Below, piece after piece: positions 2,173-61,150 of a DNA stretch of 64,000 nucleotides (its first letter is position 1; each line of letters opens with the position of its first letter). The notes below the pieces were generated by a model. It searched no databases. It saw nothing but the letters and a program-made list of their open reading frames with translations, and was not told the DNA's origin. The stretch lies in assembly GCA_000991245.1 (NCBI GenBank), contig LBRD01000002.1, positions 108,141 to 172,140 of the forward strand, written 5' to 3'. The translations under genes and the position numbers were made by a program. Source of the DNA: Parcubacteria group bacterium GW2011_GWC1_36_108. GTDB taxonomy: Bacteria > Patescibacteriota > Minisyncoccia > Moranbacterales > GWC2-37-73.

Positions 2173-2215
2173 GGGGTAGGAATTAGGAGTTAGGAATTAG
2201 GTTGTAGGAAATACA
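2173..2215. repeat. Intergenic GT-rich repeat element (TAGGAATTAGG family) immediately after ychF stop
   Basis: ggggtaggaattaggagttaggaattaggttgtaggaaatacaaatgc; the same family recurs at 5621-5700, 15262-15460, 20581-20659 and 61111-61150. Confidence 0.6.
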
Positions 2216-2227
2216 AATGCAAATTTA

Positions 2228-2257
2228 AAAACCGCCGGCTTGCGCCGGCGGTTTTTA
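2228..2257 (+). terminator. Rho-independent terminator after ychF
   Basis: aaccgccggc-ttgc-gccggcggtt hairpin followed by a T-run. Confidence 0.7.
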
Positions 2258-2353
2258 ACGTGATTTTTTGTTGTGTGTTGTATGTTTTATGTTATATGAT
2301 TTTGTGATATAATTATGACAAGAATGAAGTTGTTAAATATATTATAAAACATA

Positions 2354-3334
2354 ATGATCAATTTTAAACAAAGAGTTTACGATGAGTTGAATTTGAAGAA
2401 ACAGGCTGATGAACTTGGGGTTAAGGTTTGGCAATCACCTAGTTTTTTGTTTATTGTGATGGGTATTATAATTATTGGAGCAATGACAGCTGTTTATGTT
2501 GTATCTATAAATTATGATTCTCCCGAGATCGTGGTAATCAGTGAAGCCCTGGTTGTTATTTTGCTTTTTACAATCGGAAGTTTTATTATTAGAACTGTGG
2601 AGGAAGTTGCCAAGGCAAACAAAATGAAAACAGAATTTGTTTCGATTGCTTCACATCAACTTAAAACTCCGATTTCGGAAATGAAATGGCAAATAGAGTT
2701 GTTGTTGATAAAATTCTCCACAGGACTCAGTGTTAAACAAACTGAAATAATAAATGAGATTGCACATTCAAGCGAGAAAATGGGAAGGCTTGTTAATGAC
2801 CTGTTGGATGTGGCTAGAATTGATCAAGGGCAATTGGCACTTGCCAAGGAGGAAATTAATTTTTGCGATTTGGTTAATGATACTGTTCAATCGCAAAAGA
2901 TTTTTGCTAAGGCTAGAAGTATTGACTTGGTAACCTCTTGCAATGTGGACAAGCTGATGGTGCTTGTTGATAAGAGACGTCTTTCAGTGGTGCTTGATAA
3001 TCTTATTTCTAATGCGATCAAATATATCGATGGCAACGGAAAAGTCGAGGTTGTTGTTGAAAATGATGATGGCTTTGCTCAAGTTTGTGTTAGAGATGAT
3101 GGTGTTGGTATTCCAAAAAATGAACAAGATAATATTGCTAAGAAATTTTTTCGCAGCAACAATTCAATTAAAAACAGAACCGATGGAACTGGGCTTGGAT
3201 TGTATATAGCTAAAAACATTGTGGAGCAATCAGGCGGCAAGTTGTGGTTTAAATCAATTGAGAATGTGGGCAGTGAATTTTATTTTTCAATTCCACTGGT
3301 TGATAATGAAAAAAAGAATTTAAATTTTAAATAA
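2354..3334 (+). CDS. Sensor histidine kinase (2 TM segments, HisKA + HATPase_c)
   Basis: H-box SHQLKTPISEM; G-box DGTGLGLYIAKNIVEQSGG; N-terminal hydrophobic segments. Confidence 0.85.
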   Translation: MINFKQRVYDELNLKKQADELGVKVWQSPSFLFIVMGIIIIGAMTAVYVVSINYDSPEIVVISEALVVILLFTIGSFIIRTVEEVAKANKMKTEFVSIASHQLKTPISEMKWQIELLLIKFSTGLSVKQTEIINEIAHSSEKMGRLVNDLLDVARIDQGQLALAKEEINFCDLVNDTVQSQKIFAKARSIDLVTSCNVDKLMVLVDKRRLSVVLDNLISNAIKYIDGNGKVEVVVENDDGFAQVCVRDDGVGIPKNEQDNIAKKFFRSNNSIKNRTDGTGLGLYIAKNIVEQSGGKLWFKSIENVGSEFYFSIPLVDNEKKNLNFK

Positions 3335-3390
3335 AAATAATGTTCTTGATCGGTTCGAAAATATTTTCGTGTCGGTTGTGAGAAAAGTTT

Positions 3391-3762
3391 ATGGCAAAGT
3401 TATTGATTATTGAAGATGATCTTGTTCTGCAAAAAGCTCTTAGTGAATATCTCACTTCCGAAGGTTTTGAGGTTGAATGTGCCGAAGATGGAGAAACTGG
3501 TGTAAAATTAGCCTTAACTGGAAAGCCAGATTTAATCTTGTTGGACATTGTTTTGCCAAAAAAAGATGGATATGCAGTTCTCACAGAAGTGCGAGCAGAT
3601 GAAAATTCCAAAAATATTCCTATAGTCCTACTGACAAATCTTGGAAGTATTTCTGATGTTGAAAAGGCATTGGAGTTGGGAGCAACGACTTATCTCGTGA
3701 AAGCTGATTATAAGTTGGAGGAAGTTACTGCTAAAGTTAAAGAACTTTTACACATCAAATAA
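3391..3762 (+). CDS. Stand-alone response regulator receiver domain (CheY-like)
   Basis: 123 aa; LLIIEDD ... LLDIVLPKKDG ... K; no output domain. Confidence 0.85.
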   Translation: MAKLLIIEDDLVLQKALSEYLTSEGFEVECAEDGETGVKLALTGKPDLILLDIVLPKKDGYAVLTEVRADENSKNIPIVLLTNLGSISDVEKALELGATTYLVKADYKLEEVTAKVKELLHIK

Positions 3763-3871: not shown

Positions 3872-5620
3872 ATGCGAATTGAAAACAAACAGCTGAAAGA
3901 TTTTCTTTTAGATTCCAACTTATTAGAACCTGGAATTATAGAGGAAAATTTTAAAATCTCCTCGGAAACCAACCAAAAATTGGGGGATTTGTTGGTGGAA
4001 AAAAAGTTAATGAATGAAATTGAACTTCAGAAACTTTATTCTTATATCTTGGGCATTCCATTTGTTAATTTGGAAAAGGAGACTATCACAGCTGATATTT
4101 TGCAAATTATTCCTGAGCCTATTGCAAAAAAATATGGGATTATTGCTTTTGAAAAAAATGGTAATGACTTGAAGGTTGCAATGAAAAATCCTGAGGACTT
4201 GCAAACCATTGATTTTATTAGAAAAAAAACAGGGTTGAAAATTATTCCTTGTCTTACAAATGAAGAAAGTATTAAAGCAATTCTCAAGCAATATGAGAAA
4301 AGCTTGAAAGCTGAGTTTGGTGATATTATCAATAAAAATGCCGATGATGTCGCTGTTGGAAATGACGCGGAAAATTTGGAAAAAATCGCACAAGACTTGC
4401 CGATAATCAAAATTGTGGACACCTTGCTTAAACATGCTATTTTGCAATCCGCCAGTGATATTCATATTGAACCGGGGGAAAAAGAAGTTCGTGTTAGATA
4501 TCGTATTGACGGTGTTCTCCACGATGCAATGACACTTCCAAGACAAGTTTTGGAAGGTCTTGTTGCGCGTATTAAGGTTTTGTCTAATCTTAAATTGGAT
4601 GAACATCGTTTGCCGCAAGACGGACGTTTCAAGATTGAAAAAGAAGGATACAAAATTTCTTTTCGTGTAAGTATGTTACCAGTTTTTGAAGGGGAAAAAA
4701 TCGTAATGCGTTTGCTGGATGAAACATCCAAGGGACTCACTCTTGAAAAAATGGGGCTTACTGGTAATGCCTTGGAAGTCGTGCATAAGCACATCAAACG
4801 TCCCAATGGAATGGTGTTGGTAACGGGGCCAACCGGGTCTGGAAAAACCACGACACTGTATACGATTATGGATATTTTAAATACTACGGAGGTTAACATT
4901 AGTACGGTTGAAGATCCAGTGGAATATCGTATGACAAGAGTTAATCAAACTCAAACCAACGCTAAAATCGGAATGACATTTGCAGCGGCACTCCGCAGTC
5001 TCTTGCGTCAAGATCCGGACATTATAATGGTGGGAGAAATTCGCGATGGCGAAACGATGCAAATTGCAGTGGAAGCGGCGATGACAGGACATCTTGTGCT
5101 TTCAACATTGCATACTAACAGTGCCGCAGGAACGCTACCTCGTCTTTTGGATATGGGTGCGGAAGCTTTTCTGGTCGCTTCAACGGTAAATGTTGTTATC
5201 GGTCAAAGGCTTGTGCGAAAATTATGCAATGAATGCAAGACCGCTTATACGCTCGATGAAAAGGAAGTGAAAACACTTGGTGCTAATTTTGATATGGCCG
5301 CTATTTTGGAGATGCTTAAAAAAACTCCTGATTTGGGAGAGGTTGTTACGGCAAAAAGCACTTGGAAAAATTTGAATTTTTATCACGCCAAGGGTTGCGA
5401 ACAATGCAACAGTGAAGGATATCATGGACGTTTGGGAATTTATGAAGTATTGGAAATGGATGAGACAATTGGAAAATTGATAACCTCCAATGCTTCATCT
5501 GATGATATAGAAAAAAAAGCCAGAGAAAATGGAATGCGCACGATGGGAGAGGATGGTTTTATAAAAGCAATCCAAGGAATTACTTCACTTGAGGAAGTGA
5601 TGAGAGTAACGAAGGAGTAG
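3872..5620 (+). CDS. pilB: Type IV pilus assembly ATPase PilB / GspE family
   Basis: 582 aa; GspII_E N-terminal domain; Walker A GPTGSGKTTT; tetracysteine CNEC...CEQC motif. Confidence 0.9.
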   Translation: MRIENKQLKDFLLDSNLLEPGIIEENFKISSETNQKLGDLLVEKKLMNEIELQKLYSYILGIPFVNLEKETITADILQIIPEPIAKKYGIIAFEKNGNDLKVAMKNPEDLQTIDFIRKKTGLKIIPCLTNEESIKAILKQYEKSLKAEFGDIINKNADDVAVGNDAENLEKIAQDLPIIKIVDTLLKHAILQSASDIHIEPGEKEVRVRYRIDGVLHDAMTLPRQVLEGLVARIKVLSNLKLDEHRLPQDGRFKIEKEGYKISFRVSMLPVFEGEKIVMRLLDETSKGLTLEKMGLTGNALEVVHKHIKRPNGMVLVTGPTGSGKTTTLYTIMDILNTTEVNISTVEDPVEYRMTRVNQTQTNAKIGMTFAAALRSLLRQDPDIIMVGEIRDGETMQIAVEAAMTGHLVLSTLHTNSAAGTLPRLLDMGAEAFLVASTVNVVIGQRLVRKLCNECKTAYTLDEKEVKTLGANFDMAAILEMLKKTPDLGEVVTAKSTWKNLNFYHAKGCEQCNSEGYHGRLGIYEVLEMDETIGKLITSNASSDDIEKKARENGMRTMGEDGFIKAIQGITSLEEVMRVTKE

Positions 5621-5700
5621 GAACTAGGAATTAGCTTGTAGGAATTAGGCCTTGTTTATTATTTTACTAATTCCTAAATCCTAATTCCTAATATACTAAA
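5621..5700. repeat. Palindromic GT-rich repeat element (AGGAATTAGG ... CCTAATTCCT inverted arms) between pilB and pilC
   Basis: gtaggaactaggaattagcttgtaggaattaggcc...actaattcctaaatcctaattcctaat; imperfect inverted repeat able to form a long hairpin. Confidence 0.6.
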
Positions 5701-5703
5701 CTT

Positions 5704-10673: not shown

Positions 10674-11804
10674 TTGTGTTGTATGCTACATGATTCATGC
10701 TATATGAACCGAATGTCTTTTCTTAATAAAAAAATATTTAATGACAGTCTGGATGTTTTCGGATTGGATTTGAGCGATTTGTCTGTCAAAATTGTTAATC
10801 TCGAAAGTGATGGCACATCTGAATATGTGGCAAGTTATGCTACAGTAATGCTTGCTAATGGTGCAATAGTTGATGGAGAGATTCAGCAAAAAGATCAAGT
10901 TGTGGCTGCAATAAAAAAGGCAGTTGAAACTGTTGGGCCTGCAAAAATAAAAACCAAGAAGGTTATTTGCTCTTTGCCTGAAACAAAAGCATTCTTACGC
11001 ATTGTTTCAATTCCTCAAATGAGCGATGACGAGCTTAATGAGGCGGTAAAATGGGAAATGGAAGCCAACATCCCGCTTACGCTTGATCAAGTTTATTATG
11101 ATTGGCAGGTAATTCCAGCAGAACTTCTTTTTGAGAAGAATAAGGTAAATTTATTAGTAGTAGCAATTGCAAAAGCCGTTGTTGATCAAACGATAGAGGT
11201 TTTAGAATTGGCGGGATTGGAACCTGTTGGTTTGGAAATAGAATCAATAGCTCAAGCAAGGAGCTTGCTTTTAGAAAAAAATGAAAAGGAAACAATATTG
11301 GTGGTAGATATTGGAGATAGAAGGACTAGTTTTTCAGTTACCAAGGGCGGTGTACCATGCTTTACCTCAAGTATTCCTCTTTGCGGACAATCATTGACCG
11401 ATGTCATCTCAAAGGGGATGAATATTGGTTTTGAAGAAGCAGAAAAAATTAAAATTTCTTATGGTATTGGAGATGATTTCAAAAATGATACTCTTTTTAA
11501 ATCAGTGCAACCAGTTTTGGAAAACCTTTCTCAAGAGATAGAGCGTTCCATTGATTTTTTTGTCACAGGTCTTAAATATTCGGACGGTATTGATAAGATA
11601 ATAATCTGTGGTGGTGGAGCAAATACCAAAGGCATCGTGCCGTATTTATCGAAAAAATTAGGCAGAGAAATTCAACTTGGAAATCCATGGATAAATATGA
11701 ATCTCGGTAAAAATTTGCCAATAATTGAAAAAGGACATTCATTGCAGTTTTCAACAGCAGTAGGACTTGCTCTTAAAGGATTACATTATGAAGATATATC
11801 TTGA
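10674..11804 (+). CDS. pilM: Type IV pilus assembly protein PilM (actin-like ATPase fold)
   Basis: FGLDLSDLSVKIV ... VVDIGDRRTSFSV ... IIICGGGANTKG; real start may be a few codons downstream of 10674. Confidence 0.8.
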   Translation: MCCMLHDSCYMNRMSFLNKKIFNDSLDVFGLDLSDLSVKIVNLESDGTSEYVASYATVMLANGAIVDGEIQQKDQVVAAIKKAVETVGPAKIKTKKVICSLPETKAFLRIVSIPQMSDDELNEAVKWEMEANIPLTLDQVYYDWQVIPAELLFEKNKVNLLVVAIAKAVVDQTIEVLELAGLEPVGLEIESIAQARSLLLEKNEKETILVVDIGDRRTSFSVTKGGVPCFTSSIPLCGQSLTDVISKGMNIGFEEAEKIKISYGIGDDFKNDTLFKSVQPVLENLSQEIERSIDFFVTGLKYSDGIDKIIICGGGANTKGIVPYLSKKLGREIQLGNPWINMNLGKNLPIIEKGHSLQFSTAVGLALKGLHYEDIS

Positions 11805-15261: not shown

Positions 15262-15460
15262 AACAAGAGTATAATATAGGAATTGGGAATTAGGTTGTAG
15301 GTAGTAGGAAATACAAAAATACAAAAAAATATAGGGGTTAGGTTGTAGGAATTAGGAGTTAGGTCGCAAAAAAAAGGGGGGGGTAGTAAAAAATAAAAAA
15401 TTCAGCTACAAGCTGAATTTTTTATTTTCTAATTCCTACGACCTAACTCCTAATTCCTGC
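15262..15460. repeat. Composite GT-rich repeat region forming a long inverted repeat (ggaattaggagttaggtcg ... cgacctaactcctaattcc) around a central stem-loop
   Basis: Contains ggaattgggaattaggttgtaggtagtaggaaatacaaaaatacaaa, a G-run, aattcagctacaagctgaatt hairpin, then the inverted arm. Confidence 0.6.
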
Positions 15461-15461
15461 T

Positions 15462-15971
15462 TTAGAATCCACGAACTTGGATACGTTTGATTTTTGTTGT
15501 GTCTGCTTTTGGTAGGCGGATAGTTAGGATGCCGTTTTTAAGTGATGCCTCTGCTTTGTCAGAAATGATATCAACAGGAAGAACAACAGAACGTGAAAAA
15601 TGACCCCAGTAGCATTCTTGGTAATAATAGTTTTCACCGTTTACAATTTCTTCATTCTTTCTTTCACCCTTAATGGTTACCATATCGTTGTTAATCGAAA
15701 CATCCAAATCTTCAGGCTTCACACCTGCAATGGTTGATTTGATAACAATTTCAGTGTCAGTTTGATACACATCAATTGTAAGCTGGCCTTCTGCATCAGA
15801 AGAAAAATTCTCTTCTTCCACAAAAACAGAGCGTTGAGGTTGAGCGTTCATAATCATTTCGGTTTCTTCCTCTTCGGCATAAATAGGCATAGTTGATTCT
15901 CTTCTTTCGTCTGGTTCAATTGATGTTGCCCCAGTTACGCGTTCAAAAAATGATTTTTTTGTTTTCAACAT
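15462..15971 (-). CDS. Hsp20 / alpha-crystallin family small heat-shock protein
   Basis: Alpha-crystallin domain: LTIDVYQTDTEIVIKSTIAGVKPEDLDVSI ... GILTIRLPK. Confidence 0.85.
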   Translation of the reverse strand: MLKTKKSFFERVTGATSIEPDERRESTMPIYAEEEETEMIMNAQPQRSVFVEEENFSSDAEGQLTIDVYQTDTEIVIKSTIAGVKPEDLDVSINNDMVTIKGERKNEEIVNGENYYYQECYWGHFSRSVVLPVDIISDKAEASLKNGILTIRLPKADTTKIKRIQVRGF

Positions 15972-16694: not shown

Positions 16695-19328
16695 TTACTT
16701 TAGTGAGGCTAGATGTTTTTTGAGTTCGGCTAGCTCAGCTTGTTTTTTGGCGAGCGTTTCTTTTTGCTGAGAAATTACCTGCTCGGGAGCTTTGGAAACA
16801 AATTCTTTATTACCAAGTCTTGTTGATGAACCAGTGATGAATTTTTCAAGATTAGCTATTTCTTTTTCAGCTTTTGTTCTTTCCAGCTCAACATCAATAA
16901 GGCCGACAAGCGGAATTTTTATGATGCATTCTCCCACAACTCTCTGAATGAAGCCGCCAATCAATATTTCGTTAAATTTTATAACAGAAACTCCTGCTGA
17001 TTTTTTTATGAAATCTGCGTTTTCCAAGATGACTTTTTCAGATGATGCAGAAGCTGTTTCCACCCAAAGCTCTATTTTTTTGGCGGATTCTATGTTTTTT
17101 TCTTTTCTAACATTACGTATTGTTTTGTTGAGCGATAGTACAAATGGAAAATATGAAGAGGTTTTTGCTTGCTTGCTTTCTTCATAAGCTGGCCACTTTG
17201 AAATCATTAACAATTCTTTTTCTCCTGCCAAAGTCCAAATATGTTCCGTCACGAATGGAATAAAAGGATGCCATAATTTGAGCAATTTATCCAAAACATA
17301 ACCAAGTACCTTGTCATTCTTCTCTATTTTTTGAGTTTCAATGTATCCATCTGCAAAAGAATTCCACGTGAAAGTTTTTAATAAATCAGCTGCAACAGAG
17401 ATTTGTTTGCTTTCAAATAATTGATTTGTTTTTCCAATTAATTCATTTAAGCTGTCAGTAATCCAGCGGTCTGCCTCTGAGTTTATATCTTCCTTCGAAA
17501 TCTCTTCAACCAGTTTGAAATTTTCTTGCGAGAGGCAGTAGCGCGAAATGTTCCAAAGTTTGTTGGCAAAATTTCGGAAGGTTTCAATTTTTTCTTCGTA
17601 TAGACGTGAGTTTTGACCAGGAGCAGAGTCCATAATCAAACTCATACGCAATGCATCGGCGCCAAATTTTTCAATAACAGTAAGTGGATCGATTCCATTT
17701 CCTCTGGATTTGGAAAATTTGTGACCATCTTTGTCAAGCACCAGCCCAGTGAAAAATAAATTTTTAAAGGGTATTTTTCCTGTCGTGTATAGACTCATCA
17801 TTATCATTCGCGATGACCAAAAAAACAAAAGGTCGCGACCCATTACCATTGTGTTTGTCGGATAAAACATTTCAAAATCTTTTTCTTTTGATTTTAGTGT
17901 GGTATATGCCCATTGCGAAGAGGTGAACCATGTGTCGAAAGTGTTTTCATCTTGAACCACCGCTCCGCCACAATGTGGACAGCTGTCAATTTTTTCAATG
18001 GAAATTATTGGTTCACTGCATTTTGGTTGTGAGTTGTGAGTTGTAAGTTGTGAGTTAGTGCAATACCAAACAGGGAATTGTGGACCCCACCAAATTTGGC
18101 GAGAAATGCACCAGTCGCGCATATTATCAAACCAGTCGATGAGAATTTTTTGAAAATTATTTGGAAAAATTTCAATTTCATTTTTTTTGATAGCTTCAAT
18201 TGCTTTCTTTTTCAGGGAAAAGTTTTTAGCATCAACATTGATAAACCATTGGTTTGAAGTCAAAGGTTCAATAATTGTTTTGCAACGTTCGCAAATTGAA
18301 ACGCTGTGTGTCATCTCTTCAATTTTTTCCAGTAAGTTTAATTTTTCCAAATCTTTGATGATCTCTTCTCTTGCTTCGTGCACCGTAAGACCTGCATATT
18401 TTCCGCCAAGTTCAGTGATTAAAGCTTTTTCATCAATGATTTGGATTTCCTCTAACTTGTGATCTTTGCCAATCTCCCAGTCGAGAGGATCGTGAGATGG
18501 TGTGATTTTTACAGCTCCAGTTCCAAATGACAAATCAATTCGTTTATCTGCAATAATTGGAATGATCGTATTTTGAAGTGGTAGAATAATATTTTTCCCA
18601 ACTAATTTTGAATAGCGTTTGTCTTTAGGATTAACCGCTACAGCAGTGTCACCAAGCATTGTTTCGGGACGCGTTGTTGCAACCGTAATAAAATCGGTTG
18701 AATTCTCAATCGGATATTTGATAAAATATAGTTTTCCAGGAGTTTCTTTGTGCAAAACTTCCACATCGGAAAGTGCGGTTCCACAGCGCGGGCACCAATT
18801 TATTATTCTTTTGCCTTTATAAATCAAGCCATCTTCGTGCATTTTCACAAAAGTTTCAAGTGCGGTTTTGAGCACATCTGGATCAAGAGTAAATTTTTCT
18901 CGTGACCAATCAGCAGAGATTCCAATTTTCTTTTCTTGGCTGCGCATATAATCTGCACGATCAATACAAAAGGCATAAGTTTTTTTGTAAAAATCTTCGC
19001 GTCCAATTTCTTGGCGAGAAAGTCCTTTTTCAGCTTGCAATTTTTTTTCAAAAACAACCTGCGTCTGAATTCCAGCATGATCTTTCCCAGGGAGAAGTAA
19101 GGTTTTTTTGCCATTCATACGAGCCCAGCGACCAAAAATATCCATCACAGTGTATCCACTGGCATGCCCAATGTGCAGTTCGCCATTAGCATTTGGCGGC
19201 GGAAGAATATTGCAATATGTTTCTTTTGAATCTATATTGTCAGGATTAAAATATCCGCTTTTCTCCCAGCGAGCATAAATTTCATTCTCAATTTTTTGTG
19301 GCTCGTATATTTTTGGAAGTTCTTTCAT
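16695..19328 (-). CDS. valS: Valyl-tRNA synthetase, carrying an in-frame heptamer-repeat insertion
   Basis: PPPNANGELHIGHA (HIGH), GKDHAGIQTQ, KFSKS (KMSKS), C-terminal coiled coil; 877 aa. Confidence 0.85.
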   Translation of the reverse strand: MKELPKIYEPQKIENEIYARWEKSGYFNPDNIDSKETYCNILPPPNANGELHIGHASGYTVMDIFGRWARMNGKKTLLLPGKDHAGIQTQVVFEKKLQAEKGLSRQEIGREDFYKKTYAFCIDRADYMRSQEKKIGISADWSREKFTLDPDVLKTALETFVKMHEDGLIYKGKRIINWCPRCGTALSDVEVLHKETPGKLYFIKYPIENSTDFITVATTRPETMLGDTAVAVNPKDKRYSKLVGKNIILPLQNTIIPIIADKRIDLSFGTGAVKITPSHDPLDWEIGKDHKLEEIQIIDEKALITELGGKYAGLTVHEAREEIIKDLEKLNLLEKIEEMTHSVSICERCKTIIEPLTSNQWFINVDAKNFSLKKKAIEAIKKNEIEIFPNNFQKILIDWFDNMRDWCISRQIWWGPQFPVWYCTNSQLTTHNSQPKCSEPIISIEKIDSCPHCGGAVVQDENTFDTWFTSSQWAYTTLKSKEKDFEMFYPTNTMVMGRDLLFFWSSRMIMMSLYTTGKIPFKNLFFTGLVLDKDGHKFSKSRGNGIDPLTVIEKFGADALRMSLIMDSAPGQNSRLYEEKIETFRNFANKLWNISRYCLSQENFKLVEEISKEDINSEADRWITDSLNELIGKTNQLFESKQISVAADLLKTFTWNSFADGYIETQKIEKNDKVLGYVLDKLLKLWHPFIPFVTEHIWTLAGEKELLMISKWPAYEESKQAKTSSYFPFVLSLNKTIRNVRKEKNIESAKKIELWVETASASSEKVILENADFIKKSAGVSVIKFNEILIGGFIQRVVGECIIKIPLVGLIDVELERTKAEKEIANLEKFITGSSTRLGNKEFVSKAPEQVISQQKETLAKKQAELAELKKHLASLK
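18025..18060. repeat. Heptamer tandem repeat (GTTGTGA)n inside the valS coding sequence, in frame
   Basis: ggttgtgagttgtgagttgtaagttgtgagttagtg; translated on the minus strand as NSQLTTHNSQP. Confidence 0.6.
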
Positions 19329-19437
19329 GTTTTTTCTTTATATAAAAGCTTTAATATGTATTTATCTTAGCAGGATAAGGGATATTTTTCAAGAATGTAA
19401 ATGCGGAAAGGGCGATTGTGATACAATCGCCCTTTTT

Positions 19438-19761
19438 TTAGGGTTGCGTTAACTCCTCAACTATCGCGTCCCTTAGTTCCTGCGAAAGTGAGGACTTTTG
19501 AATTTGCAACACAAATAATTTGATGTCTTTTCCAAGAGTCTCCGTTATAAATGTTGACAGGAGAATTTGAGGTTGCAACTCTTTGCTGTCGGAAAATATT
19601 TCTCCGAGCTGTTGAATGTAATGACCTGTAGCATTCATTGTTACATCTTCCTTGAATATGTCAGCACATTCTTTGATGGATCTAATTAGTGAGGGATCTC
19701 CGTTAGTAGCTACATAGACTTGATAAAGCATTCTTGCAATCGTGCTCATTTTAGGTCTCAT
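19438..19761 (-). CDS. Hypothetical protein
   Basis: 107-aa ORF, no motif recognised. Confidence 0.4.
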   Translation of the reverse strand: MRPKMSTIARMLYQVYVATNGDPSLIRSIKECADIFKEDVTMNATGHYIQQLGEIFSDSKELQPQILLSTFITETLGKDIKLFVLQIQKSSLSQELRDAIVEELTQP

Positions 19762-19821
19762 GCTGACCCTCCTTTTAAGTTGCTAATATTATGGTATCTC
19801 TATATCTATCTTTGCACATAT

Positions 19822-21045
19822 CTATTTCATTTTCAAGTTGGCATTTGGCTGAATTGTTTTCCAACCATCAAGTGCTTTTTTCTTTTGTGCTTCTGTCATT
19901 TTTTCCCAGCGAAAAGCTGCTGCAGCTGCAATCATAGCGGCGTTGTCGCCAGTCAGGTTTATAGGTGGTAGGTGGTAGGTTGTAGTTGGTAGGGATTTAG
20001 AAATAGCTTTGCCGAGTTGCTCGCGAAGTTCAGTATTAGCACTTACGCCACCTGCCAATAAAATTGTTTTTGGCTTGTAAATCTCGGCAGCCTTAATAGT
20101 TTTTGAAACAAGTACATCAATACAAGCCTGCTGAAATTCATGACAGATTTCAGGAATCAGTAACTCGTAACTCGTAACTGGTAACTTTTCTTGTAATTTT
20201 TTTGTTTCATATAACACAGCAGTCTTGAGTCCAGAGAAAGAAAAATTAAAATTCTTCTTATGCAGCATCGGGCGAGGGAAAATCAGCTTTTTAGGCATTA
20301 GCTTCTTAGCTTCATCGAATTCATAATTTTGTTTGGAAGTTGAGTTATTGGATTTTGTTTGGAAATTGGAAATTGGAAATTGGAAATTCGCAGCTTGCTG
20401 CGCAACCTTCGGTCCTCCCGGATAGCCGATGCCGAGAATGCGTGCAACTTTGTCAAAAGCTTCACCAACTGCATCATCCACGGTTTGTCCGATTATTTCA
20501 TATTGCAAATGATCCTTCATCAAAACGAGCTGAGTATGACCACCGCTGACAACAAGCGCCAAAATTGGAAATTCAATGTAGGTTCTAGGAATTAGGTTGT
20601 AGGAATTAGGTTTTTGTTTTTTATTTGCTAAATCCTCATTCCTAACTCCTAATTCCTGAGTTTCGATAAAGTTGGCATATATGTGTCCTTCGATGTGGTG
20701 AATCCCAATCAGGGGCTTTTCCCAGAGATAGGAAAGGGTTTTGGCATAGTTAACCCCTACTAGAAGCGCAGGAATAAGCCCAGGACCGCTTGTGACACTG
20801 ATTGCATCCAACTGGCTTGGCGTTATTTGCGCTTCTTCCAGGGCCATTTTTAGAAGCTTGGGAAAGTTTTTTAAGTGTTCTCTGGCAGCAAGATTTGGCA
20901 CAACACCGCCCCATTTGGCGTGTAACTTTACTTGAGATGAAACTTGATTTGTAAGAATCTCAAGCCCCTTTTTTGAACTACGCAAAATAGCGATAGCTGT
21001 TTCATCGCAGGATGTTTCTATAGAAAGTATTAGGGTATTTGACAT
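19822..21045 (-). CDS. tsaD: tRNA N6-adenosine threonylcarbamoyltransferase TsaD (Kae1/YgjD), with five in-frame repeat-derived insertions
   Basis: LILSIETSCDETAIAI, HIEGH, VVSGGHTQL, LAGGVSAN; start taken at MSNTL (21045). About 407 aa versus about 340 typical. Confidence 0.85.
   Translation of the reverse strand: MSNTLILSIETSCDETAIAILRSSKKGLEILTNQVSSQVKLHAKWGGVVPNLAAREHLKNFPKLLKMALEEAQITPSQLDAISVTSGPGLIPALLVGVNYAKTLSYLWEKPLIGIHHIEGHIYANFIETQELGVRNEDLANKKQKPNSYNLIPRTYIEFPILALVVSGGHTQLVLMKDHLQYEIIGQTVDDAVGEAFDKVARILGIGYPGGPKVAQQAANFQFPISNFQTKSNNSTSKQNYEFDEAKKLMPKKLIFPRPMLHKKNFNFSFSGLKTAVLYETKKLQEKLPVTSYELLIPEICHEFQQACIDVLVSKTIKAAEIYKPKTILLAGGVSANTELREQLGKAISKSLPTTTYHLPPINLTGDNAAMIAAAAAFRWEKMTEAQKKKALDGWKTIQPNANLKMK
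19964..19994. repeat. Heptamer tandem repeat (GGTGGTA)n inside tsaD, in frame
   Basis: ggtggtaggtggtaggttgtagttggtaggg; encodes LPTTTYHLPP. Confidence 0.6.
20158..20185. repeat. Heptamer tandem repeat (GTAACTC)n inside tsaD, in frame
   Basis: cagtaactcgtaactcgtaactggtaac; encodes LPVTSYELL. Confidence 0.6.
20292..20384. repeat. Composite repeat insertion inside tsaD (TTAGGCATTAGCTTCTTAG unit plus (GGAAATT)n)
   Basis: ttaggcattagcttcttag (cf. 52698 and 53564) ... ggaaattggaaattggaaatt; translated as ANFQFPISNFQTKSNNSTSKQNYEFDEAKKLMPKKLIF. Confidence 0.6.
20581..20659. repeat. Full palindromic TAGGAATTAGG-family element inserted in frame inside tsaD
   Basis: ggttctaggaattaggttgtaggaattagg...cattcctaactcctaattcctgag; translated as ELGVRNEDLANKKQKPNSYNLIP. 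Confidence 0.65.
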
Positions 21046-23124: not shown

Positions 23125-23334
23125 GTACTTGGTAGCCCAAGTTAGAAATTCTTGGAACCAGCTTATTAGTGAGCTTAATGAGTGGGCTATGTTTAGGAGA
23201 CGGGAAATGTGTGCTGAAAATATGGCTCAGATTGGCGTATAACATTTCTTACCGTATCTGCCATTAAAGAATGAAACCATATATAAACCCCGTCTGACAT
23301 ACACAGGCGGGGTAATTAAATGGGATAAATTTTT

Positions 23335-23817
23335 TTACGTGTGTAATTTATGTATTAAACCCGTATCGAGAAGACGAATAGACATTGCTTGCTCACTGAC
23401 TTCGAACTTTTTTGCGAGCTGGTTAATTCCAATTTTTCCCGAGTGCTCCTTAATTTCTTTCTCAATAAATTGTTTTGGCATTAGTAATTCTGATGCGAAT
23501 TTATTTGCCTCCTTCTCCTTGTTTATTGGCTTATCAAATCTATCATCAACAATTGTATGGTCATCGTGTCCCATTAAAAAATGTCCTAGCTCGTGTGCAA
23601 GTGTAAAACGTTGTCTTACCTTGGGATGGTTTTGATTAACGCCAATAAATGTCATTCCTTCCTTGTGCATTATCATCCCGGAAACATTGTCAGGAAAATC
23701 TGGGTATGGAACAACTTGTATGTTGAATAATGCAGCCACTTCTTCAAGGGGCACAGGCAACTTTTCTAGTCCAATTTTAGCAATAATTGTATTAACTTTT
23801 TCTGAAATACCTTCCAT
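23335..23817 (-). CDS. ImmA/IrrE-family zinc metallopeptidase (anti-repressor protease type)
   Basis: HEXXH motif AHELGHFLMGH; DUF955-like; immediately downstream of the XRE regulator. Confidence 0.75.
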   Translation of the reverse strand: MEGISEKVNTIIAKIGLEKLPVPLEEVAALFNIQVVPYPDFPDNVSGMIMHKEGMTFIGVNQNHPKVRQRFTLAHELGHFLMGHDDHTIVDDRFDKPINKEKEANKFASELLMPKQFIEKEIKEHSGKIGINQLAKKFEVSEQAMSIRLLDTGLIHKLHT

Positions 23818-24134
23818 TATTTTTTGTTTATGTTTGACTTTGCATACTTAAAAAAATCAGCCGTTAGTTTATCGTAGTTGCACTCAGGGTCAAGACTGCT
23901 TGCATCCGCCCTAAATTGAACCATTGTGCTGTCATTAGAAAAATAATTTTCTCCAAGGTTGAATGTTTGAATTAGTTTATGCAGTGATTCGCCACTTAAG
24001 ACGCGGGCGCCCTTCTCAACGTACGAAATATAGGACTCAGAAAGACCTAGGGTTGTCCCTAGTTCGTGCTGTTTAAGTCCTTTTTCTTTTCTAAGTTGTC
24101 TGATTTTTTTACCTACAGAAGATTCTATATTCAT
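23817..24134 (-). CDS. XRE-family helix-turn-helix transcriptional regulator (CI/ImmR-like)
   Basis: KKIRQLRKEKGLKQHELGTTLGLSESYISYVEKG, a canonical HTH_XRE. Confidence 0.8.
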   Translation of the reverse strand: MNIESSVGKKIRQLRKEKGLKQHELGTTLGLSESYISYVEKGARVLSGESLHKLIQTFNLGENYFSNDSTMVQFRADASSLDPECNYDKLTADFFKYAKSNINKK

Positions 24135-24166
24135 ATGTACTTACATTTTTACACACTGTTAAACTA

Positions 24167-24181
24167 CTGTCAAGTCTTGAC
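24167..24181. promoter_or_regulatory. 15-bp perfect palindrome TGTCAAGTCTTGACA upstream of the XRE repressor gene (candidate operator)
   Basis: tgtcaag-t-cttgaca lies 33 bp upstream of the XRE start in the divergent control region. Confidence 0.5.
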
Positions 24182-24285
24182 ACTACCCATACAATTTAAA
24201 TGCCCTTATAGAGCCATTAGGAGCTAGCGGTGTACTTATTGATTTAAACGTTTTTGTTCTAGAATAAGGCAATATTTTAAAATTC

Positions 24286-24313
24286 TTGACAAACTTGACC
24301 AAGCTACTATAAT
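24286..24313 (+). promoter_or_regulatory. Consensus sigma-70-type promoter TTGACA-16-TATAAT driving 24416..24946
   Basis: ttgacaaacttgaccaagctactataat. Confidence 0.55.
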
Positions 24314-24415
24314 GAGGGGTAGGTCGAAACTTTTCCCAGTCCTTATTTTTCTCCTTATTAAGCCACTGGATATAATTTTAAAAAAGAGAACACAATTCGG
24401 GGGAAAATTGTAAAT

Positions 24416-24946
24416 ATGGCAATGAAATCCAAGTATGAAAAAGAAAAACTAAAAGCAAAAAATAAATATTTTTCCATTGGCAAGGTTTTTAACCCTGCTT
24501 TTGCAAAAGATATATATTTCAATGCTCAAGGCTTCAACCACCTTGTTTACGGTAAAGGTAATATGATGAGGAGTAAAGAGCAGCAGTTAGCCAGATTCAG
24601 GCTTTTAGATAAAGCAGTTGGGCTCATATCAAGCAATGAAGTGTTTAAGTTGAGCAAAACAGCAGACAGAGAAAAGCTTAAAAAAGGTATAAAGAAAATT
24701 AGCATTGAAAAACAATGGTGCTGTGACGGTGAGAAAAATGGCTCTGGTTTCAGGGTTATTTTGAGACAAAGGGACAATGGCAATATTCATTTTTTGAGTG
24801 TCATACCTCTTGGAAAAACTCAGACAGCATATTATCCATTCGCTTCATTGTTAGCTGCAATCCCAAATTTGCTATTTAAACGGCCTGAGCCGGCTCTTGA
24901 AACCGTAGAAATTAGTGAAGTTGAGACTGAAAATGAACCTGAATAA
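24416..24946 (+). CDS. Hypothetical protein (element cargo)
   Basis: 176 aa, lysine-rich N-terminus, acidic C-terminus; no motif recognised; followed by a terminator at about 24951-24979. Confidence 0.45.
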   Translation: MAMKSKYEKEKLKAKNKYFSIGKVFNPAFAKDIYFNAQGFNHLVYGKGNMMRSKEQQLARFRLLDKAVGLISSNEVFKLSKTADREKLKKGIKKISIEKQWCCDGEKNGSGFRVILRQRDNGNIHFLSVIPLGKTQTAYYPFASLLAAIPNLLFKRPEPALETVEISEVETENEPE

Positions 24947-25166
24947 ATATAAAAAAAAGCCGCCTAAAGCGGTTTTTTTCTATGCTTGCCTTCAATTAAA
25001 CTTGAAAAAGGCTTTCGCCTCACAAGCACATTCCTATAGTATCCCATAGTTAGTACTCTGTCAACAGAATTATATTCCCAAAGAGACATCTCGACAGAGT
25101 TGTTTTTTTATTGATTTTATTGTAAATTACATATGCAACGTCCAATTTAATAGGCTCTGTCTTTCT

Positions 25167-25688
25167 ATGGATAGAAGTAAGGTTGTGCTCGAAAATGGCA
25201 ATCTTACTAAAACAATTTGGCATAACCTGCTTAATTGGGCGTTGCAACCAGTAAGGTTGCCTTTTTTTATATCCAAAATTGCGACTTTGGTGGGGTATTT
25301 TTCTAATAATTTTTCAATAAACTATATGAAAGAACTATCCATTGTCGAAAAAATAACAAGTGATTTTTCTCAGGGCGTAAGCATATCAGTAATACTATTC
25401 ATAATTGGCGCGGCGTTTATTTTTAGCAGCCCACTGATAGGATTATTTTTATTAGTATCCGCATTTTTCATATACTCAAAAACATTAAGTAAATGGGGTC
25501 GAATTGAAAAGATGACCTCTAGCGTCTGGAGTGGAGTTAAGACGGCAGCAGTATTATTAGTGGTTGGAATGGTGCCCGGGATAATTCTCGAACTTATTTT
25601 TAAACCATTAGCACTGGGGTATTTCTTCTTTGTGATTGCAGCTGTTTATATTTTTTCTAAATCAATAACAAGGCGATGGAAAAAGTAA
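25167..25688 (+). CDS. Hypothetical membrane protein (element cargo)
   Basis: 173 aa with several hydrophobic segments. Confidence 0.45.
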   Translation: MDRSKVVLENGNLTKTIWHNLLNWALQPVRLPFFISKIATLVGYFSNNFSINYMKELSIVEKITSDFSQGVSISVILFIIGAAFIFSSPLIGLFLLVSAFFIYSKTLSKWGRIEKMTSSVWSGVKTAAVLLVVGMVPGIILELIFKPLALGYFFFVIAAVYIFSKSITRRWKK

Positions 25689-25945
25689 AGAAAGAATCGT
25701 TAGATGAAAAAGTTAAAAAGTACATCCTTATTTTTATGGCTGGTATGTTTGAGTTGGTGGCTTTAGATTTTTTTGCTGGAGCTAACGGCATCATTATTAT
25801 CAAGGATGACGGTCCACAATGGCCTTTCTATTTACTTGCTACAGTAGCGGGCATATTTCTATACATAGCCTTTAGGACCGGGGTTAAGCAAGGTTATGAG
25901 GATGGATTTACTGATGGAGAAAAATACAAGAATATTACATATTGA
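25676..25945 (+). CDS. Hypothetical small membrane protein (element cargo)
   Basis: 89 aa, two hydrophobic segments, overlaps the previous ORF. Confidence 0.4.
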   Translation: MEKVKKESLDEKVKKYILIFMAGMFELVALDFFAGANGIIIIKDDGPQWPFYLLATVAGIFLYIAFRTGVKQGYEDGFTDGEKYKNITY

Positions 25946-26502
25946 ATGCACTTACAATATGTGCCCGTCTGACAAGGGACACCGTCTGACATTATATTGC
26001 AAATCGTTTGTCAGCTTGTATTTATTTAATGCACGAAAATCAATCCATCAAAGGCTTATTCCAAAAGAGTTAGCTTCTTTTTTTTATCAGATTGTTATTG
26101 TTCTACTGTCTGACACAAACATTCCAATAAAAGCACACAAACAGTCGGTACTTGCTAGCCGGCACTGTTGCTGAGATTTATTTTTTTATTCAAGTTGAAT
26201 TGATTTCAAAAATGTGCAGACTTTCGAGGGGGTGGTAGGGGTGGAGCTAAACTTTTGGTCTTGGCACACGTGTTGTATACCGTTTCTGGCGATTATGATT
26301 TTGGAATTCAACTGTCTGACATTGACAAGTGGCAATTTTTCTGCTAAGTTAATGATAACAATTTAAGAGTAGTTAGCTTCACTTTCTAGACACTCACCCT
26401 CAAAAGTCACCCTCTAGAGTACTCAAGCCTGAAAATGTTTTTTCGAAAATATTCTCAGACTCGATTACTCTTTTTTGTTTCTTGTTTTTAACTCGAAACA
26501 AA

Positions 26503-26655
26503 TGTTTACTACTGAGAAGTGTTGTCGAATTGAGCCATCATTGAAGAATCTTTCCGAAGAAGAGGTTATTTTGGTTGAGGAAAATTATCGTGAAATGGTG
26601 AGACTTGCAATAGAAAGCTTCAAGAAAAATAAAAAGGGTTCCAAAAATCCCTGAT
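26503..26655 (+). CDS. Small ORF (50 aa) immediately upstream of the recombinase; possible accessory protein or directionality factor
   Basis: MFTTEKCCRIEPSLKNLSEEEVILVEENYREMVRLAIESFKKNKKGSKNP; below the ORF-track size cutoff; position suggestive only. Confidence 0.25.
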
Positions 26656-26694
26656 GGGTATTGTTGAATATTTACACGAGCGTACTATATAAAT

Positions 26695-28206
26695 ATGGAA
26701 ACAGAAAAAACAGGCATCATCTATTGCAGAGTATCCTCAAAAGACCAAGTTGAAGGTACTAGCTTGGGCAGCCAAGAAAGGTTTTGCAAAGAATATGCAG
26801 AACGTAATGGTATTAGGATTTTAAAAATATACATTGAGCTTGGTGAATCAGCAAAAACAGCTAACCGAACAGAATTTAATAAGGCCTTAGCATTTTGTAG
26901 TGACAAAAAGAATAATGTCACTTTTTTTGTTGTTTATAAGCTAGATAGGTTTGCACGAAATCAAGAAGACCACGTTATGGTTCGAGCTTTATTAAAAAAG
27001 GCGGGTACTGATTTACGTTCAGTTACGGAAACAATAGACGAATCGCCAGTTGGGAAAGCGATGGAGGGTATGATTTCTGTTTTTGCGGAATTAGACAATA
27101 ATATGAGAACGGAAAGAACTAAGCAGGGTATGCTGGAACGCTTAAAACAAGGCTTCTGGAACTGGCAAGCACCCCTAGGCTACTATCGACCTTACAAGGG
27201 TTCAAATATTGTACCTGACCCTCAAAAGAGCGGGTTTATACGACTTGGTTTTGAAGAATATTCCAAAGGCACATACACTTATGAAAAAATTGCACTGTTT
27301 CTGTCAGACAGAGGTTTAAGGACAAAACAAAACAAAAACCCATCAACCGCCCTTATGCAAAAAATACTTACTAATCCTATTTATTATGGGTATATTGATG
27401 TTTGGGGTGGACATAAAGGAGCCTTCGAACCTATTATTTCAGAAAACTTGTTTAGAAAGTGCCAACCTGACTATATGAAGTCGGCGCACGCAGCACCAAG
27501 GTCAGCAAACAACCCCTTATTTCCCTTGAGAAAATTAGTTATTTGCGATGAATGTGGGGCTTCACTCACTGGCAGTACATCAAGAAATAGGCACGGTTCA
27601 AAATATCCATACTATCATCACCAGCACGCTGGTTGTAAAAAAACAAGGTCAATCCCAAAAGAATCATTCGAACAGCAATTTGTTGAATATCTGGACAGTA
27701 TCTCTCCCGGTATTAAATATGAAAAACTATTCAAAGCTATCGTTTTGGATGAATGGCAAAATGGCTACAAAAAGATAGACAACGAAAATGCACAAATAAG
27801 AAGAGACATAACTTCATTAGAAGCTGAACGCCAAAAAGTCTTCGATTTTCATCGTGCAGGAAAGTATACCGATGATGACCTATTTGAGCAAAAAAAACTA
27901 ATCGAGGATAGGATAAGTCAAAAGCACGCCCTCATACAAGACAAGAGATATGAGGAGTTTGAAATGAATGAGGTGCTTGAATATTGTTTTTCCTATGTTC
28001 GAACCTCTGCAAAATCGTGGATTGAGGCTGATTATGCAACAAAACTAAGTTTTCAAAAGTTAATCTTTGCAGATAGCATAAAATATGATGGTGAGAAATT
28101 TGGAACCCCTGATTTAAGGCTCCTATATACGATAAATCAGCACTCGCGTGCTGATAAATCTTCTTTGGTAGCGCCAAGGGGAATCGGACCCCTGTTACCA
28201 GGATGA
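26695..28206 (+). CDS. Large serine recombinase (resolvase/invertase catalytic domain, recombinase domain, zinc ribbon, coiled coil)
   Basis: IYCRVSSKDQ (catalytic Ser), YKLDRFARN, zinc ribbon CDECGASL...C; 503 aa; last 41 nt overlap tRNA-Glu antisense. Confidence 0.85.
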   Translation: METEKTGIIYCRVSSKDQVEGTSLGSQERFCKEYAERNGIRILKIYIELGESAKTANRTEFNKALAFCSDKKNNVTFFVVYKLDRFARNQEDHVMVRALLKKAGTDLRSVTETIDESPVGKAMEGMISVFAELDNNMRTERTKQGMLERLKQGFWNWQAPLGYYRPYKGSNIVPDPQKSGFIRLGFEEYSKGTYTYEKIALFLSDRGLRTKQNKNPSTALMQKILTNPIYYGYIDVWGGHKGAFEPIISENLFRKCQPDYMKSAHAAPRSANNPLFPLRKLVICDECGASLTGSTSRNRHGSKYPYYHHQHAGCKKTRSIPKESFEQQFVEYLDSISPGIKYEKLFKAIVLDEWQNGYKKIDNENAQIRRDITSLEAERQKVFDFHRAGKYTDDDLFEQKKLIEDRISQKHALIQDKRYEEFEMNEVLEYCFSYVRTSAKSWIEADYATKLSFQKLIFADSIKYDGEKFGTPDLRLLYTINQHSRADKSSLVAPRGIGPLLPG

Positions 28207-28240
28207 AAACCTGGTGTCCTAACCACTAGACGATGGCGCC
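28166..28240 (-). tRNA. tRNA-Glu (anticodon TTC) with encoded CCA and G1-U72 wobble
   Basis: GGCGCCATCGTCTAGTGGTTAGGACACCAGGTTTTCATCCTGGTAACAGGGGTCCGATTCCCCTTGGCGCTACCA. Confidence 0.85.
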
Positions 28241-53276: not shown

Positions 53277-53552
53277 ATGAACAAGAAACAAATCAAGAAG
53301 GTCGTGAAAAAAAATGTGGAAAAGGTTAAAGTGCAGGCCAAATCTGCTAGTGCTGATTTGGAGAAACTTGCTATGAAGGAATATGGCAAGATCAAAAAAC
53401 AAATGGATACTACTTCCAAAAAAGTTGAATCCTATGTGAAAAGGAATCCAGAAAAAGCAGCAGCAATTTCTGCTGGAATTGGTATGGCCCTTGGAGCAGT
53501 TGCCGGACTTATTGCTGGAAGCAATATGGATGGAAAAAAGAAGAAGAAATAG
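53277..53552 (+). CDS. Small C-terminally anchored protein (ElaB/YqjD-like architecture)
   Basis: Lys-rich helical N-terminus plus C-terminal TM AAAISAGIGMALGAVAGLIAG. Confidence 0.4.
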   Translation: MNKKQIKKVVKKNVEKVKVQAKSASADLEKLAMKEYGKIKKQMDTTSKKVESYVKRNPEKAAAISAGIGMALGAVAGLIAGSNMDGKKKKK

Positions 53553-61116: not shown

Positions 61117-61150
61117 GTATTAGGTTCTAGGGATTAGGTTTTAGGATATA
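61111..61150. repeat. GT-rich repeat element (TAGG(A/G)TT family) after the rpoC stop
   Basis: taggtattaggttctagggattaggttttaggatatacaatacaaatc; shares the ...taggaaatacaaa tail with 2173-2215 and 15262-15340. Confidence 0.55.

Follow-up and report, generated by a model that had tools for sequence, protein, structure and literature searches.

The 64,000-nucleotide window analysed here (contig LBRD01000002.1, positions 108,141 to 172,140) comes from Parcubacteria group bacterium GW2011_GWC1_36_108, a groundwater member of the candidate phyla radiation (CPR) with a tiny genome, and contains genes for YchF, PilB, PilC, a VanW-like protein, Hsp20, TsaD and RpoC, all confirmed by Pfam. Dispersed among these genes is a family of short repeats that an earlier note, made from the DNA letters, had described as palindromic and as marking gene 3' ends. 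The coordinates given there all carry the described sequence, and the repeats lie on, or no more than 11 nt after, the stop codons of ychF, pilB, the Hsp20 gene, rpoC and the open reading frame (ORF) at 53277-53552. The unit, however, is not palindromic: it is a 7-nt direct tandem repeat (Tandem Repeats Finder, period 7/14) composed of TAGG and three variable bases (N3), with three to five units per array, and palindromy is restricted to the three loci at which two arrays face each other, namely pilB/pilC, the Hsp20 3' end and the inside of tsaD. The arrays are a low-GC variant, not based on G-quadruplexes (G4), of a class of heptameric repeats that is already known but unexplained. The members in the window and the terminators that accompany them are as follows.

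2177-2217, plus strand: one-armed array TAGGAAT TAGGAGT TAGGAAT TAGGTTG TAGGAAA with tail TACAAA, 4 nt past the ychF stop codon (2170-2172); RNA predicted to be unstructured.
2225-2258, plus strand: GC-rich intrinsic terminator of ychF (terminator scan), a separate hairpin downstream of the array and not a member of the repeat family.
5618-5649, plus strand: 5' arm at pilB/pilC, TAGGAAC TAGGAAT TAGCTTG TAGGAAT TAGG; the first TAG is the pilB stop codon.
5666-5692, minus strand: inverted 3' arm at pilB/pilC, read as TAGGAAT TAGGATT TAGGAAT; pairing partner of 5625-5649, stopping 12 nt short of the pilC ATG (5704).
15277-15317, plus strand: additional array TAGGAAT TGGGAAT TAGGTTG TAGGTAG TAGGAAATACAAA and the family tail; lies in the spacer that precedes the VanW-like gene.
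15332-15366, plus strand: 3' arm at Hsp20, TAGGGGT TAGGTTG TAGGAAT TAGGAGT TAGGTCG; forms a near-perfect duplex of ~46 bp with 15428-15459.
15395-15423, minus strand: inner A/T-flanked stem-loop and T-run between both repeat arms, the likely intrinsic terminator of the Hsp20 gene.
15428-15459, minus strand: 5' arm at Hsp20 (mRNA strand), CAGGAAT TAGGAGT TAGGTCG TAGGAAT TAG, 2 nt past the Hsp20 stop codon (15462-15464).
19962-19993, plus strand: TAGGTGG TAGGTGG TAGGTTG TAGTTGG in the 3' part of tsaD; the minus strand encodes LPTTTYHLPP; identical in the sister genome described below.
20579-20658, minus strand: in-frame inverted pair of arrays in tsaD, encoding ETQELGVRNEDLANKKQKPNSYNLIPRTY; variant units avoid stop codons.
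53564-53601, plus strand: degenerate member TTAGGCT TTAGCTTC TTAGCTTA TTAAGAAATACAAAT, 11 nt past the stop codon of ORF 53277-53552, with a terminator (53603-53624) downstream.
61114-61159, plus strand: one-armed array TAGGTAT TAGGTTC TAGGGAT TAGGTTT TAGGATA with tail TACAATACAAA; the first TAG is the rpoC stop codon.

Copies inside tsaD had been reported before, and an inverted pair does lie there at 20579-20658; the degenerate array at 53564-53601 and the TAGGTGG array at 19962-19993 are additional members. The family is not random: the motif TAGGAATTAGG, which is two head-to-tail units, has 23 matches when up to one mismatch is allowed, where 0.98 ± 1.08 would be expected and 100 shuffles gave no more than 4, and TAGGNNTTAGG matches exactly 16 times against 0.22 expected. 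Runs of at least three TAG phased at 7 nt occur at 10 places against 2.1 in shuffles, and a forward array places TAG in all three reading frames. Copies share more than their unit. The conserved tail pointed out earlier, TAGGAWATACAAW, recurs exactly at 2205, 15305 and 61142 and with one mismatch at 53588 (6 matches against 0.7 expected), and a non-periodic 20-mer, TAGGAATTAGSTTGTAGGAA, is exact at 2191, 5625 and 20586 and recurs with at most two mismatches at four further places, with none expected. Phasing of TAG is sometimes 8 or 9 nt, as in the 8-nt TTAGCTTC repeats in tsaD (20298-20313) and at 53571-53586.

Heptamer arrays of unrelated units, such as TTGGAAA, GTAACTC, GTTGTGA, TGTTGTA and TACATGC, also occur in the window. 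Counting arrays of at least three units and excluding those better fitted by a shorter period, 10 arrays of period 7 were found against 1, 1, 1 and 0 at periods 5, 6, 8 and 9. Across 80 CPR loci (708 kb) selected by PilB homology alone, there are 47 arrays of period 7 against 13, 11, 6 and 2 at the same other periods, and shuffled sequence gives 3 at period 7. The favoured unit differs per CPR genome, for example ACGATAT/ACTATAT in L191 and AAATACT in L182. A search of the whole window with Rfam at gathering thresholds returned six tRNAs and nothing else, and a search of 8 million papers by literal motif strings returned no match.

At the five gene ends, the arrays start on the sense strand of the upstream gene, 0-11 nt from its stop codon, and two architectures recur. 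In the first, the stop codon is followed by an array, the tail TAGGAWATACAAW and then a separate GC-rich terminator (ychF; 53564-53624); the one-armed arrays of ychF, ORF 53277-53552 and rpoC lie ~20 nt upstream of such a terminator. In the second, two facing arrays form a long A/U-rich stem that either encloses the terminator (Hsp20) or fills the intercistronic spacer (pilB/pilC). The earlier reading of two copies as long hairpins stands for the inverted pairs at pilB/pilC (5618-5692) and Hsp20 (15332-15459), which fold strongly: the pilB/pilC copy (5612-5703) has a dG of -26.3 kcal/mol (z -3.4) and the Hsp20 3' region a dG of -59.5 kcal/mol (z -11.6), and the pair in tsaD gives -24.7 kcal/mol (z -5.95). 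It does not extend to 2177-2217 and 61114-61159, which are one-armed, and single arrays are predicted to be unstructured (0.0 kcal/mol). The suggestion that the repeats themselves are terminators was not borne out, given that a separate GC hairpin and T-run follow the array at ychF and at 53603-53624, the Hsp20 arms enclose the real terminator, the pilB/pilC hairpin has no T-run, and the terminator scan detects 2225-2258 and none of the arrays.

Two further features adjoin these structures. A homopolymer pair of A8 then G8 (AAAAAAAAGGGGGGGG) occupies 15368-15383 in the loop region of the Hsp20 3' hairpin and is a candidate slippage-prone tract. A GC hairpin, GTCATTCCCGCGTAGGCGGGAATCCAGGAC (ATTCCC-N8-GGGAAT), adjoins the rpoC array at 61167-61196 and is absent from the rpoC 3' end of the relative L402; near-identical hairpins are present in a Saccharibacteria contig, where a TAGG array lies directly beside the hairpin, and in a Uhrbacteria contig (L120 299-321; L033 9-31). 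The hairpin resembles the Neisseria dRS3 repeat.

The family extends far beyond the window and was not confined to it, as had been considered possible. The 16-base pattern TAGGAATTAGGNNTTAGG was scanned in 185,579 species genomes (596 Gb); with ~280 chance matches expected the match count is uninformative, and the sequence context of the matches listed (120 loci, 124 arrays) was used instead. Among these listed matches, to which the following figures apply, the match sits in a longer heptamer array at nearly all 120 loci (median 4 units, maximum 44), and the free NN positions of the pattern are almost always AA or AG. The phyla and groups represented are Bacteroidota, Clostridia, Cyanobacteria, Verrucomicrobiota, Acidobacteriota, Chloroflexota, CPR and Treponema. 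The array starts no more than 12 nt past the stop codon of a same-strand ORF of at least 80 amino acids in 48 of the 124 arrays (39%) against 3.1% of random positions, and one-armed arrays after a gene are sense in 32 cases and antisense in 6. Inverted partners accompany 35 of the 124 arrays, of which 33 are arranged as 5'-TAGGAAT...ATTCCTA-3' and 2 in the opposite way, and at some loci GGGAATT runs adjoin TAGGAAT runs. Runs of three perfect TAGGAAT units were counted in 58 stretches of viral contigs, against 8, 8 and 16 for three permutations of the same composition, making them 3.6-7 times commoner. As controls for period in the viral contigs, the 8-mer TAGGAAAT gave 4 matches and the 6-mer TAGGAT gave 114; the latter was not used, being confounded by the compatibility of hexamers with coding sequence and by many matches in giant-virus contigs.

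The arrays were compared site by site with a syntenic sister genome, GCA_028715745.1 (L125, L206; 86-95% nucleotide identity), and with the more distant Moranbacteria L207/L405, L208, L209 and L406. Over 21 kb, independent assemblies match the window at 100% identity, with 23 contigs listed for this population from many samples, and the window TsaD is 100% identical to a protein named Candidatus Moranbacteria (CPR/Parcubacteria). Of the first three sites below, L406 was sampled only at Hsp20, and L208 and L209 only at ychF and pilB/pilC.

ychF 3' end: array in the window and the sister genome; none in L207/L405 or L208; TAGCTTC(AT) array in L209.
pilB/pilC: hairpin in the window, the sister genome and L207/L405; 4-nt spacer in L208; hairpin with unit ACCAATA in L209.
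Hsp20 3' end: arms around the terminator in the window and the sister genome; plain terminator in L207/L405 and L406.
rpoC 3' end: array in the window; no array in relatives L402-L404.

Presence at orthologous sites, a comparison that the earlier note had proposed, is therefore patchy among relatives with a YchF identity of 91-99%, and both the number and the sequence of the units differ between species. More distant Parcubacteria carry other heptamer hairpins at the pilB/pilC junction, often around an inner GC hairpin. The ychF terminator is orthologous and is kept in L206-L209 whether an array is present or not, and the spacer between stop codon and terminator is 50-56 nt in four of five genomes regardless of the array and ~30 nt in L208. 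Filled and empty orthologous sites exhibit no target-site duplication and no clean insertion boundary. At strain level, no array differs in length in a 99.75%-identical assembly, and identity is 100% in three further ones. In L207, the second arm of the hairpin at pilB/pilC (11610-11650) is made of 8-nt TTAGCTTC repeats, and L209 has units of 9 nt, TAGCTTCAT.

The window and the sister genome differ in concert. After TAG, units in the window continue with GAAT/GAGT and those in the sister genome with GTTC/GTAT/GTTT at each of the three shared sites, so that each genome has its own dialect of the unit. At ychF, the two genomes disagree at 9 of the 12 variable positions but at 0 of the 16 core ones, and in the hairpins both arms are altered together with complementarity kept; the inner hairpin at the Hsp20 site also differs in the sister genome, in the same place. 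The sister lineage is probably the one that switched dialect, because the window pilB/pilC array resembles that of the more distant L207. Beside the ychF array, the terminator stems (2225-2258 in the window, 8105-8140 in L206) differ by compensated pairs, CCGCCGGC/GCCGGCGG against CCGTTGGC/GCCAACGG, which shows ordinary structure-preserving evolution next to a fast-changing array.

Preservation of the TAGG core next to replaced variable bases raises the possibility that the array is a periodic binding site in mRNA, in which UAGG/AGGA every 7 nt is read by a multimeric RNA-binding protein or by the ribosomal anti-Shine-Dalgarno sequence and the inverted arm provides a competing structure. HutP, an antiterminator, recognises three UAG motifs separated by 4 nt, and AGGA serves both as the motif of CsrA and as the core of the Shine-Dalgarno sequence. 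By sequence, three UAG with 4-nt spacing are present in the arrays, and the unchanged core (0 of 16 against 9 of 12 variable positions at ychF), the strong sense polarity relative to the upstream gene, the start of the array at the stop codon and the excess of TAGGAAT x3 over its permutations in viral contigs (58 against 8, 8 and 16) all agree with such a site. No HutP-like domain, and no other candidate binder, was found in the scanned window ORFs, however, and relatives use quite different units at the same sites (ACCAATA, AATTTCC, AAATTCA, TAGCTTCAT). If the core alone mattered, the variable bases should drift randomly and not as a genome-wide dialect, and the in-frame copies in tsaD would be translated rather than bound. 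A periodic binding site is accordingly regarded as rather improbable, and the same low credence is given to the effect it might have on termination, antitermination or the behaviour of the ribosome after termination.

The tsaD gene contains four arrays, all in frame, and its ORF and catalytic motifs are intact with 31 extra residues. Two in-frame arrays, one in tsaD and one in valS, have other units:

20359-20388, minus strand: TTGGAAA x4 (AATTTCC on the coding strand) in tsaD, encoding NFQFPISNFQ; a different unit whose repeat is kept at the DNA level in four genomes.
18026-18056, minus strand: GTTGTGA x4.4 in valS, encoding TNSQLTTHNSQ; an unrelated unit that is also present in the sister genome.

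An alignment of TsaD from 17 homologues exhibits variable insertions at fixed sites, and peptides such as ISNFQFPIS at two of these sites are translated TTTCCAA arrays. At site 1, the TAGGAAT-type hairpin of the window differs from that of the sister genome by 3 changes in ~93 nt, and L405 and L406 have a hairpin with AATTTCC arms instead. The AATTTCC x4 and CCTACC arrays of tsaD are identical in the sister genome, whereas their flanks diverge. The AATTTCC arrays abut conserved EFPI codons, GAATTTCCAATT, which would be a natural seed for the AATTTCC unit. In an AlphaFold2 model of TsaD with a mean predicted local distance difference test (pLDDT) score of 73, sites 1 and 2 fall in segments with pLDDT < 50 (residues 130-155 and 214-249); on this model, the tsaD copy lies in a disordered loop where insertion is apparently tolerated. 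In valS, the TCACAAC array is in frame in both the window and the sister genome.

Two neighbouring features vary as well. A ValS segment with a CxxC motif (SCPHCGG) lies directly after the heptamer array (17960-18025) and has no counterpart in the sister ValS, forming a hypervariable insertion. Between tsaD and valS (19330-19800), a 107-amino-acid ORF (19438-19761, minus strand) with its own terminator hairpin is absent from the sister L125, where the gap between the two genes is 66 nt.

Taken with the turnover at orthologous sites, the location of the in-gene copies would also suit neutral heptamer microsatellites that accumulate under weak selection in short spacers and disordered loops, with the position rules following from the compactness of the genome. 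The units are diverse and turn over fast, close relatives have no array or have only a 4-nt pilB/pilC spacer, the copies in genes lie in low-confidence loops, and 7 nt has been proposed to be a polymerase slippage step, as cited in PMC4679880 and PMC4692102. Neutral accumulation would not be expected to give the 32:6 ratio of sense to antisense arrays or the 33:2 arrangement of arms among the matches listed, nor hairpin arms that change sequence yet stay perfectly complementary. The TAGG core is invariant, the tsaD arrays are more strongly conserved than their flanks, and there is no length polymorphism between strains, making a purely neutral origin very doubtful.

Several known repeat systems resemble the arrays in part. 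Among them are the repeats described by Rehm et al. (2015), GGGAATC in Xanthomonas and GGGGA(C/T)T in Nostoc PCC 7120, which prefer four units, form 70-75 convergent inverted pairs and persist at orthologous loci with altered length, and for which G-quadruplexes were stressed (PMC4692102). The arrays share with this GGGAATC/GGGGAYT class a 7-nt unit, ~4 units per array, facing inverted pairs able to form stem-loops and conservation of location between sister species despite differences in length or sequence, and GGGAATC is two transitions from AGGAATT. Unlike GGGAATC, the unit here contains only GG, and (UAGGAAU)5 is predicted to have 0.0 kcal/mol and no G4, against -8.4 kcal/mol with a G4 for (GGGAAUC)5 (ViennaRNA, G-quadruplex model). 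Therefore, G4 formation cannot be the property that unites the class. The arrays further differ from the Xanthomonas and Nostoc repeats in belonging to a CPR genome of 37% GC, in having in-frame copies in essential genes and in the concerted dialect switch between sister genomes.

A second resemblance is to the cyanobacterial short tandemly repeated repetitive (STRR) sequences and the TAACTGA arrays of Beggiatoaceae, Cyanobacteria and Bacteroidetes (MacGregor 2015; PMC4679880), which are likewise lineage-specific heptamers in short intergenic arrays at many loci, sporadic across phyla, with stop codons in the unit and no known mechanism. TAACTGA arrays are mostly found immediately before start codons, whereas the TAGG arrays follow stop codons, and inverted pairs are rare among the former (169 direct sets against one indirect) but frequent here. 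As Mrazek et al. (2007) are cited in PMC4679880, heptanucleotides are the commonest long simple repeats in bacteria and polymerase slippage was proposed for them. Tandem repeats of Borgs, as described in PMC9879509, similarly yield disordered protein segments where they lie within genes; the units of Borg in-gene repeats are multiples of 3 nt, whereas the 7-nt unit here gives a peptide period of 7 residues every three units. The family is found both between genes and in frame in a conserved gene, at a site with pLDDT < 50, which is the behaviour of Rickettsia palindromic elements (RPEs): these are palindromic repeats, both intergenic and in frame in conserved genes, that add a peptide at a tolerated surface site. 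The likeness drawn here is one of behaviour. RPEs are elements of 100-150 bp with a fixed sequence and no heptamer arrays, and carry a CGTC tag (PMC3733652).

Repetitive extragenic palindromic (REP) sequences offer a third comparison and a rival explanation. GTAG-tagged REPs often donate a TAG stop codon, lie downstream of ORFs, have intragenic copies and prefer head-to-head dimers (Di Nocera et al. 2013; PMC3733652). Like them and like REP doublets (REPINs) mobilised by REP-associated tyrosine transposases (RAYTs) (PMC3733652, PMC2817692, PMC3116915), the arrays are species-specific, lie 3' of ORFs, supply TAG as stop codon, have in-frame copies and form larger hairpins as dimers; they differ in having a 7-nt tandem unit without a stem-loop, in the placement of TAG in paired arms and in that no RAYT was found among the ~39 window ORFs scanned. 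On this comparison, the arrays would be non-autonomous elements moved in trans by a Y1/RAYT-type or other single-copy transposase that is encoded elsewhere in the genome and targets gene 3' ends. The genome-specific sets of units that switch in concert at three orthologous sites, the identical 20-mer and tail common to copies and the patchy presence in relatives with 91-99% YchF identity would all suit trans-mobilisation. Many units are preceded by G, giving GTAGG, which recalls the tag of GTAG-REPs (at 2176, 5617, 5638, 15345, 20578 and 20599, and not at 61113 or 15459), and the 33:2 arrangement of arms parallels the head-to-head dimers of GTAG-REPs (PMC3733652). In addition, a related Moranbacteria contig, L403, has a Y1_Tnp gene flanked by its own palindromes.

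Several features oppose trans-mobilisation. Whereas a REP unit is an imperfect palindrome of 20-40 bp, an array by itself forms no stem-loop (0.0 kcal/mol), and TAG or GTAG lies within paired arms and not in an unpaired tag. By Pfam, no transposase, reverse transcriptase or HutP is present among ~39 window ORFs; tblastn with the L403 Y1 protein yields no homologue either in the window or among the ~400 compared loci, and the repeat that flanks its gene, GAGGCTAAGCCTCC, is unrelated. Filled and empty sites differ without a duplication or clean boundary while spacer length is conserved, and the presence of arrays at the same three sites in sister genomes argues for inheritance over independent insertion. 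Movement as REP-like elements is thus considered unlikely, albeit a live rival in that copies have features beyond the unit in common and change in a concerted way from one sister genome to the other; the earlier suggestion of mobility of the miniature inverted-repeat transposable element kind found no support, with no target-site duplication, no fixed length (32 to ~130 nt) and no transposase in the window. The L403 gene itself (2919-3674) lies directly after rpoC and encodes an IS200-like, RAYT-like Y1_Tnp protein of 251 amino acids; it is flanked by GAGGCTAAGCCTCC palindromes and contains GAGGCTAAGCCTCC twice in frame, read as EAKPP.

The explanation favoured here, with about even confidence, combines in-place growth of heptamers, copying between loci and a role of the resulting RNA in 3' untranslated regions (UTRs) or between cistrons. 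Arrays would grow in place by slipped-strand copying in 7-nt steps, and intrastrand template switching would create the second arm and maintain its complementarity. Copying between loci (ectopic conversion or re-seeding) would then keep the dispersed arrays of a genome alike, giving the dialect of each genome. Local slippage is supported by the excess of period 7, the drift of units along arrays, the coding seed in tsaD and the conserved spacer length. The shared 20-mer, the shared tail and the concerted dialect switch go beyond slippage alone, and some copying between loci is therefore required, with ectopic conversion, renewed seeding from a shared template and trans-mobilisation as candidates. 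As for function, the arrays would be transcribed as 3'-UTR or intercistronic RNA. Two-armed copies may extend or clamp the hairpin at the 3' end as a barrier to 3' exonucleases or, alternatively, may act as a double-stranded site of the RNase III type that uncouples the stability of neighbouring cistrons, and one-armed copies may be unstructured, C-poor spacers that stop ribosomes in every frame ahead of the terminator.

A number of points weigh against this combination of growth, copying and a 3'-end role. The instability typical of simple sequence repeats was not seen, the 99.75%-identical strain having no change in array length, and the tsaD arrays have diverged less between the sister genomes than the sequence around them. 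The shared 20-mer, the tail and the dialect switch have to be met by an added copying step without a known enzyme, and an invariant TAGG beside an N3 that is replaced freely has the look of selection for something periodic, for instance a binding site, which the account does not require. The pilB/pilC hairpin lacks a U-tract, and every functional step is inferred.

A broader reading is that a sequence-specific process common to many phyla (CPR, Bacteroidota, Clostridia, Cyanobacteria, Verrucomicrobiota, Acidobacteriota, Chloroflexota and spirochaetes) seeds and homogenises sense-strand arrays of the (A/G)GGAAT(T/C) type right after stop codons, such that the Xanthomonas GGGAATC repeats, the cyanobacterial STRRs and the CPR arrays would be one phenomenon that is not G4-based. 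Its driver could be an unrecognised, possibly templated enzyme or a conserved interaction at termination, with the ribosome or with RNA polymerase, and the dialect switch between sister genomes would then reflect a changed template or a changed recognising factor. This unification is put forward as a distinctly speculative proposal.

As a low-GC, non-G4 example with the same anatomy, the TAGG arrays weaken the G-quadruplex explanation for the heptamer class. The graded series of relatives, in which sites are empty, filled or occupied by another unit, together with the concerted change at three sites, provides a handle on mechanism, given that purely local slippage cannot yield this pattern. 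Peptides with a period of 7 residues are put into essential CPR proteins (TsaD, ValS) and are one source of the unexplained insertions common in CPR proteins, and many of the stop codons and 3' UTRs to be annotated in such genomes are defined by the arrays. The wide phyletic recurrence of unit and anatomy, the in-frame colonisation of essential genes and the concerted change of unit are the aspects worth following.

Two features of the window lie apart from the arrays. An island of ~5 kb (23142-28165) has inserted at the 3' end of a tRNA-Glu gene (28166-28240); it contains a serine recombinase gene (26695-28206), a helix-turn-helix/M78 peptidase pair and small ORFs. The island is absent from strain L124 and the sister L125, where the tRNA gene is joined directly to the sequence at 23141, and its far junction holds a partial copy of the tRNA end (GCTACCAA). 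A protein of 1834 amino acids (40132-45636) possesses a glycine-rich domain and many repeats of the FN3 and purple-acid-phosphatase-N type, and is a large surface-type protein that is unusual for a small CPR genome.

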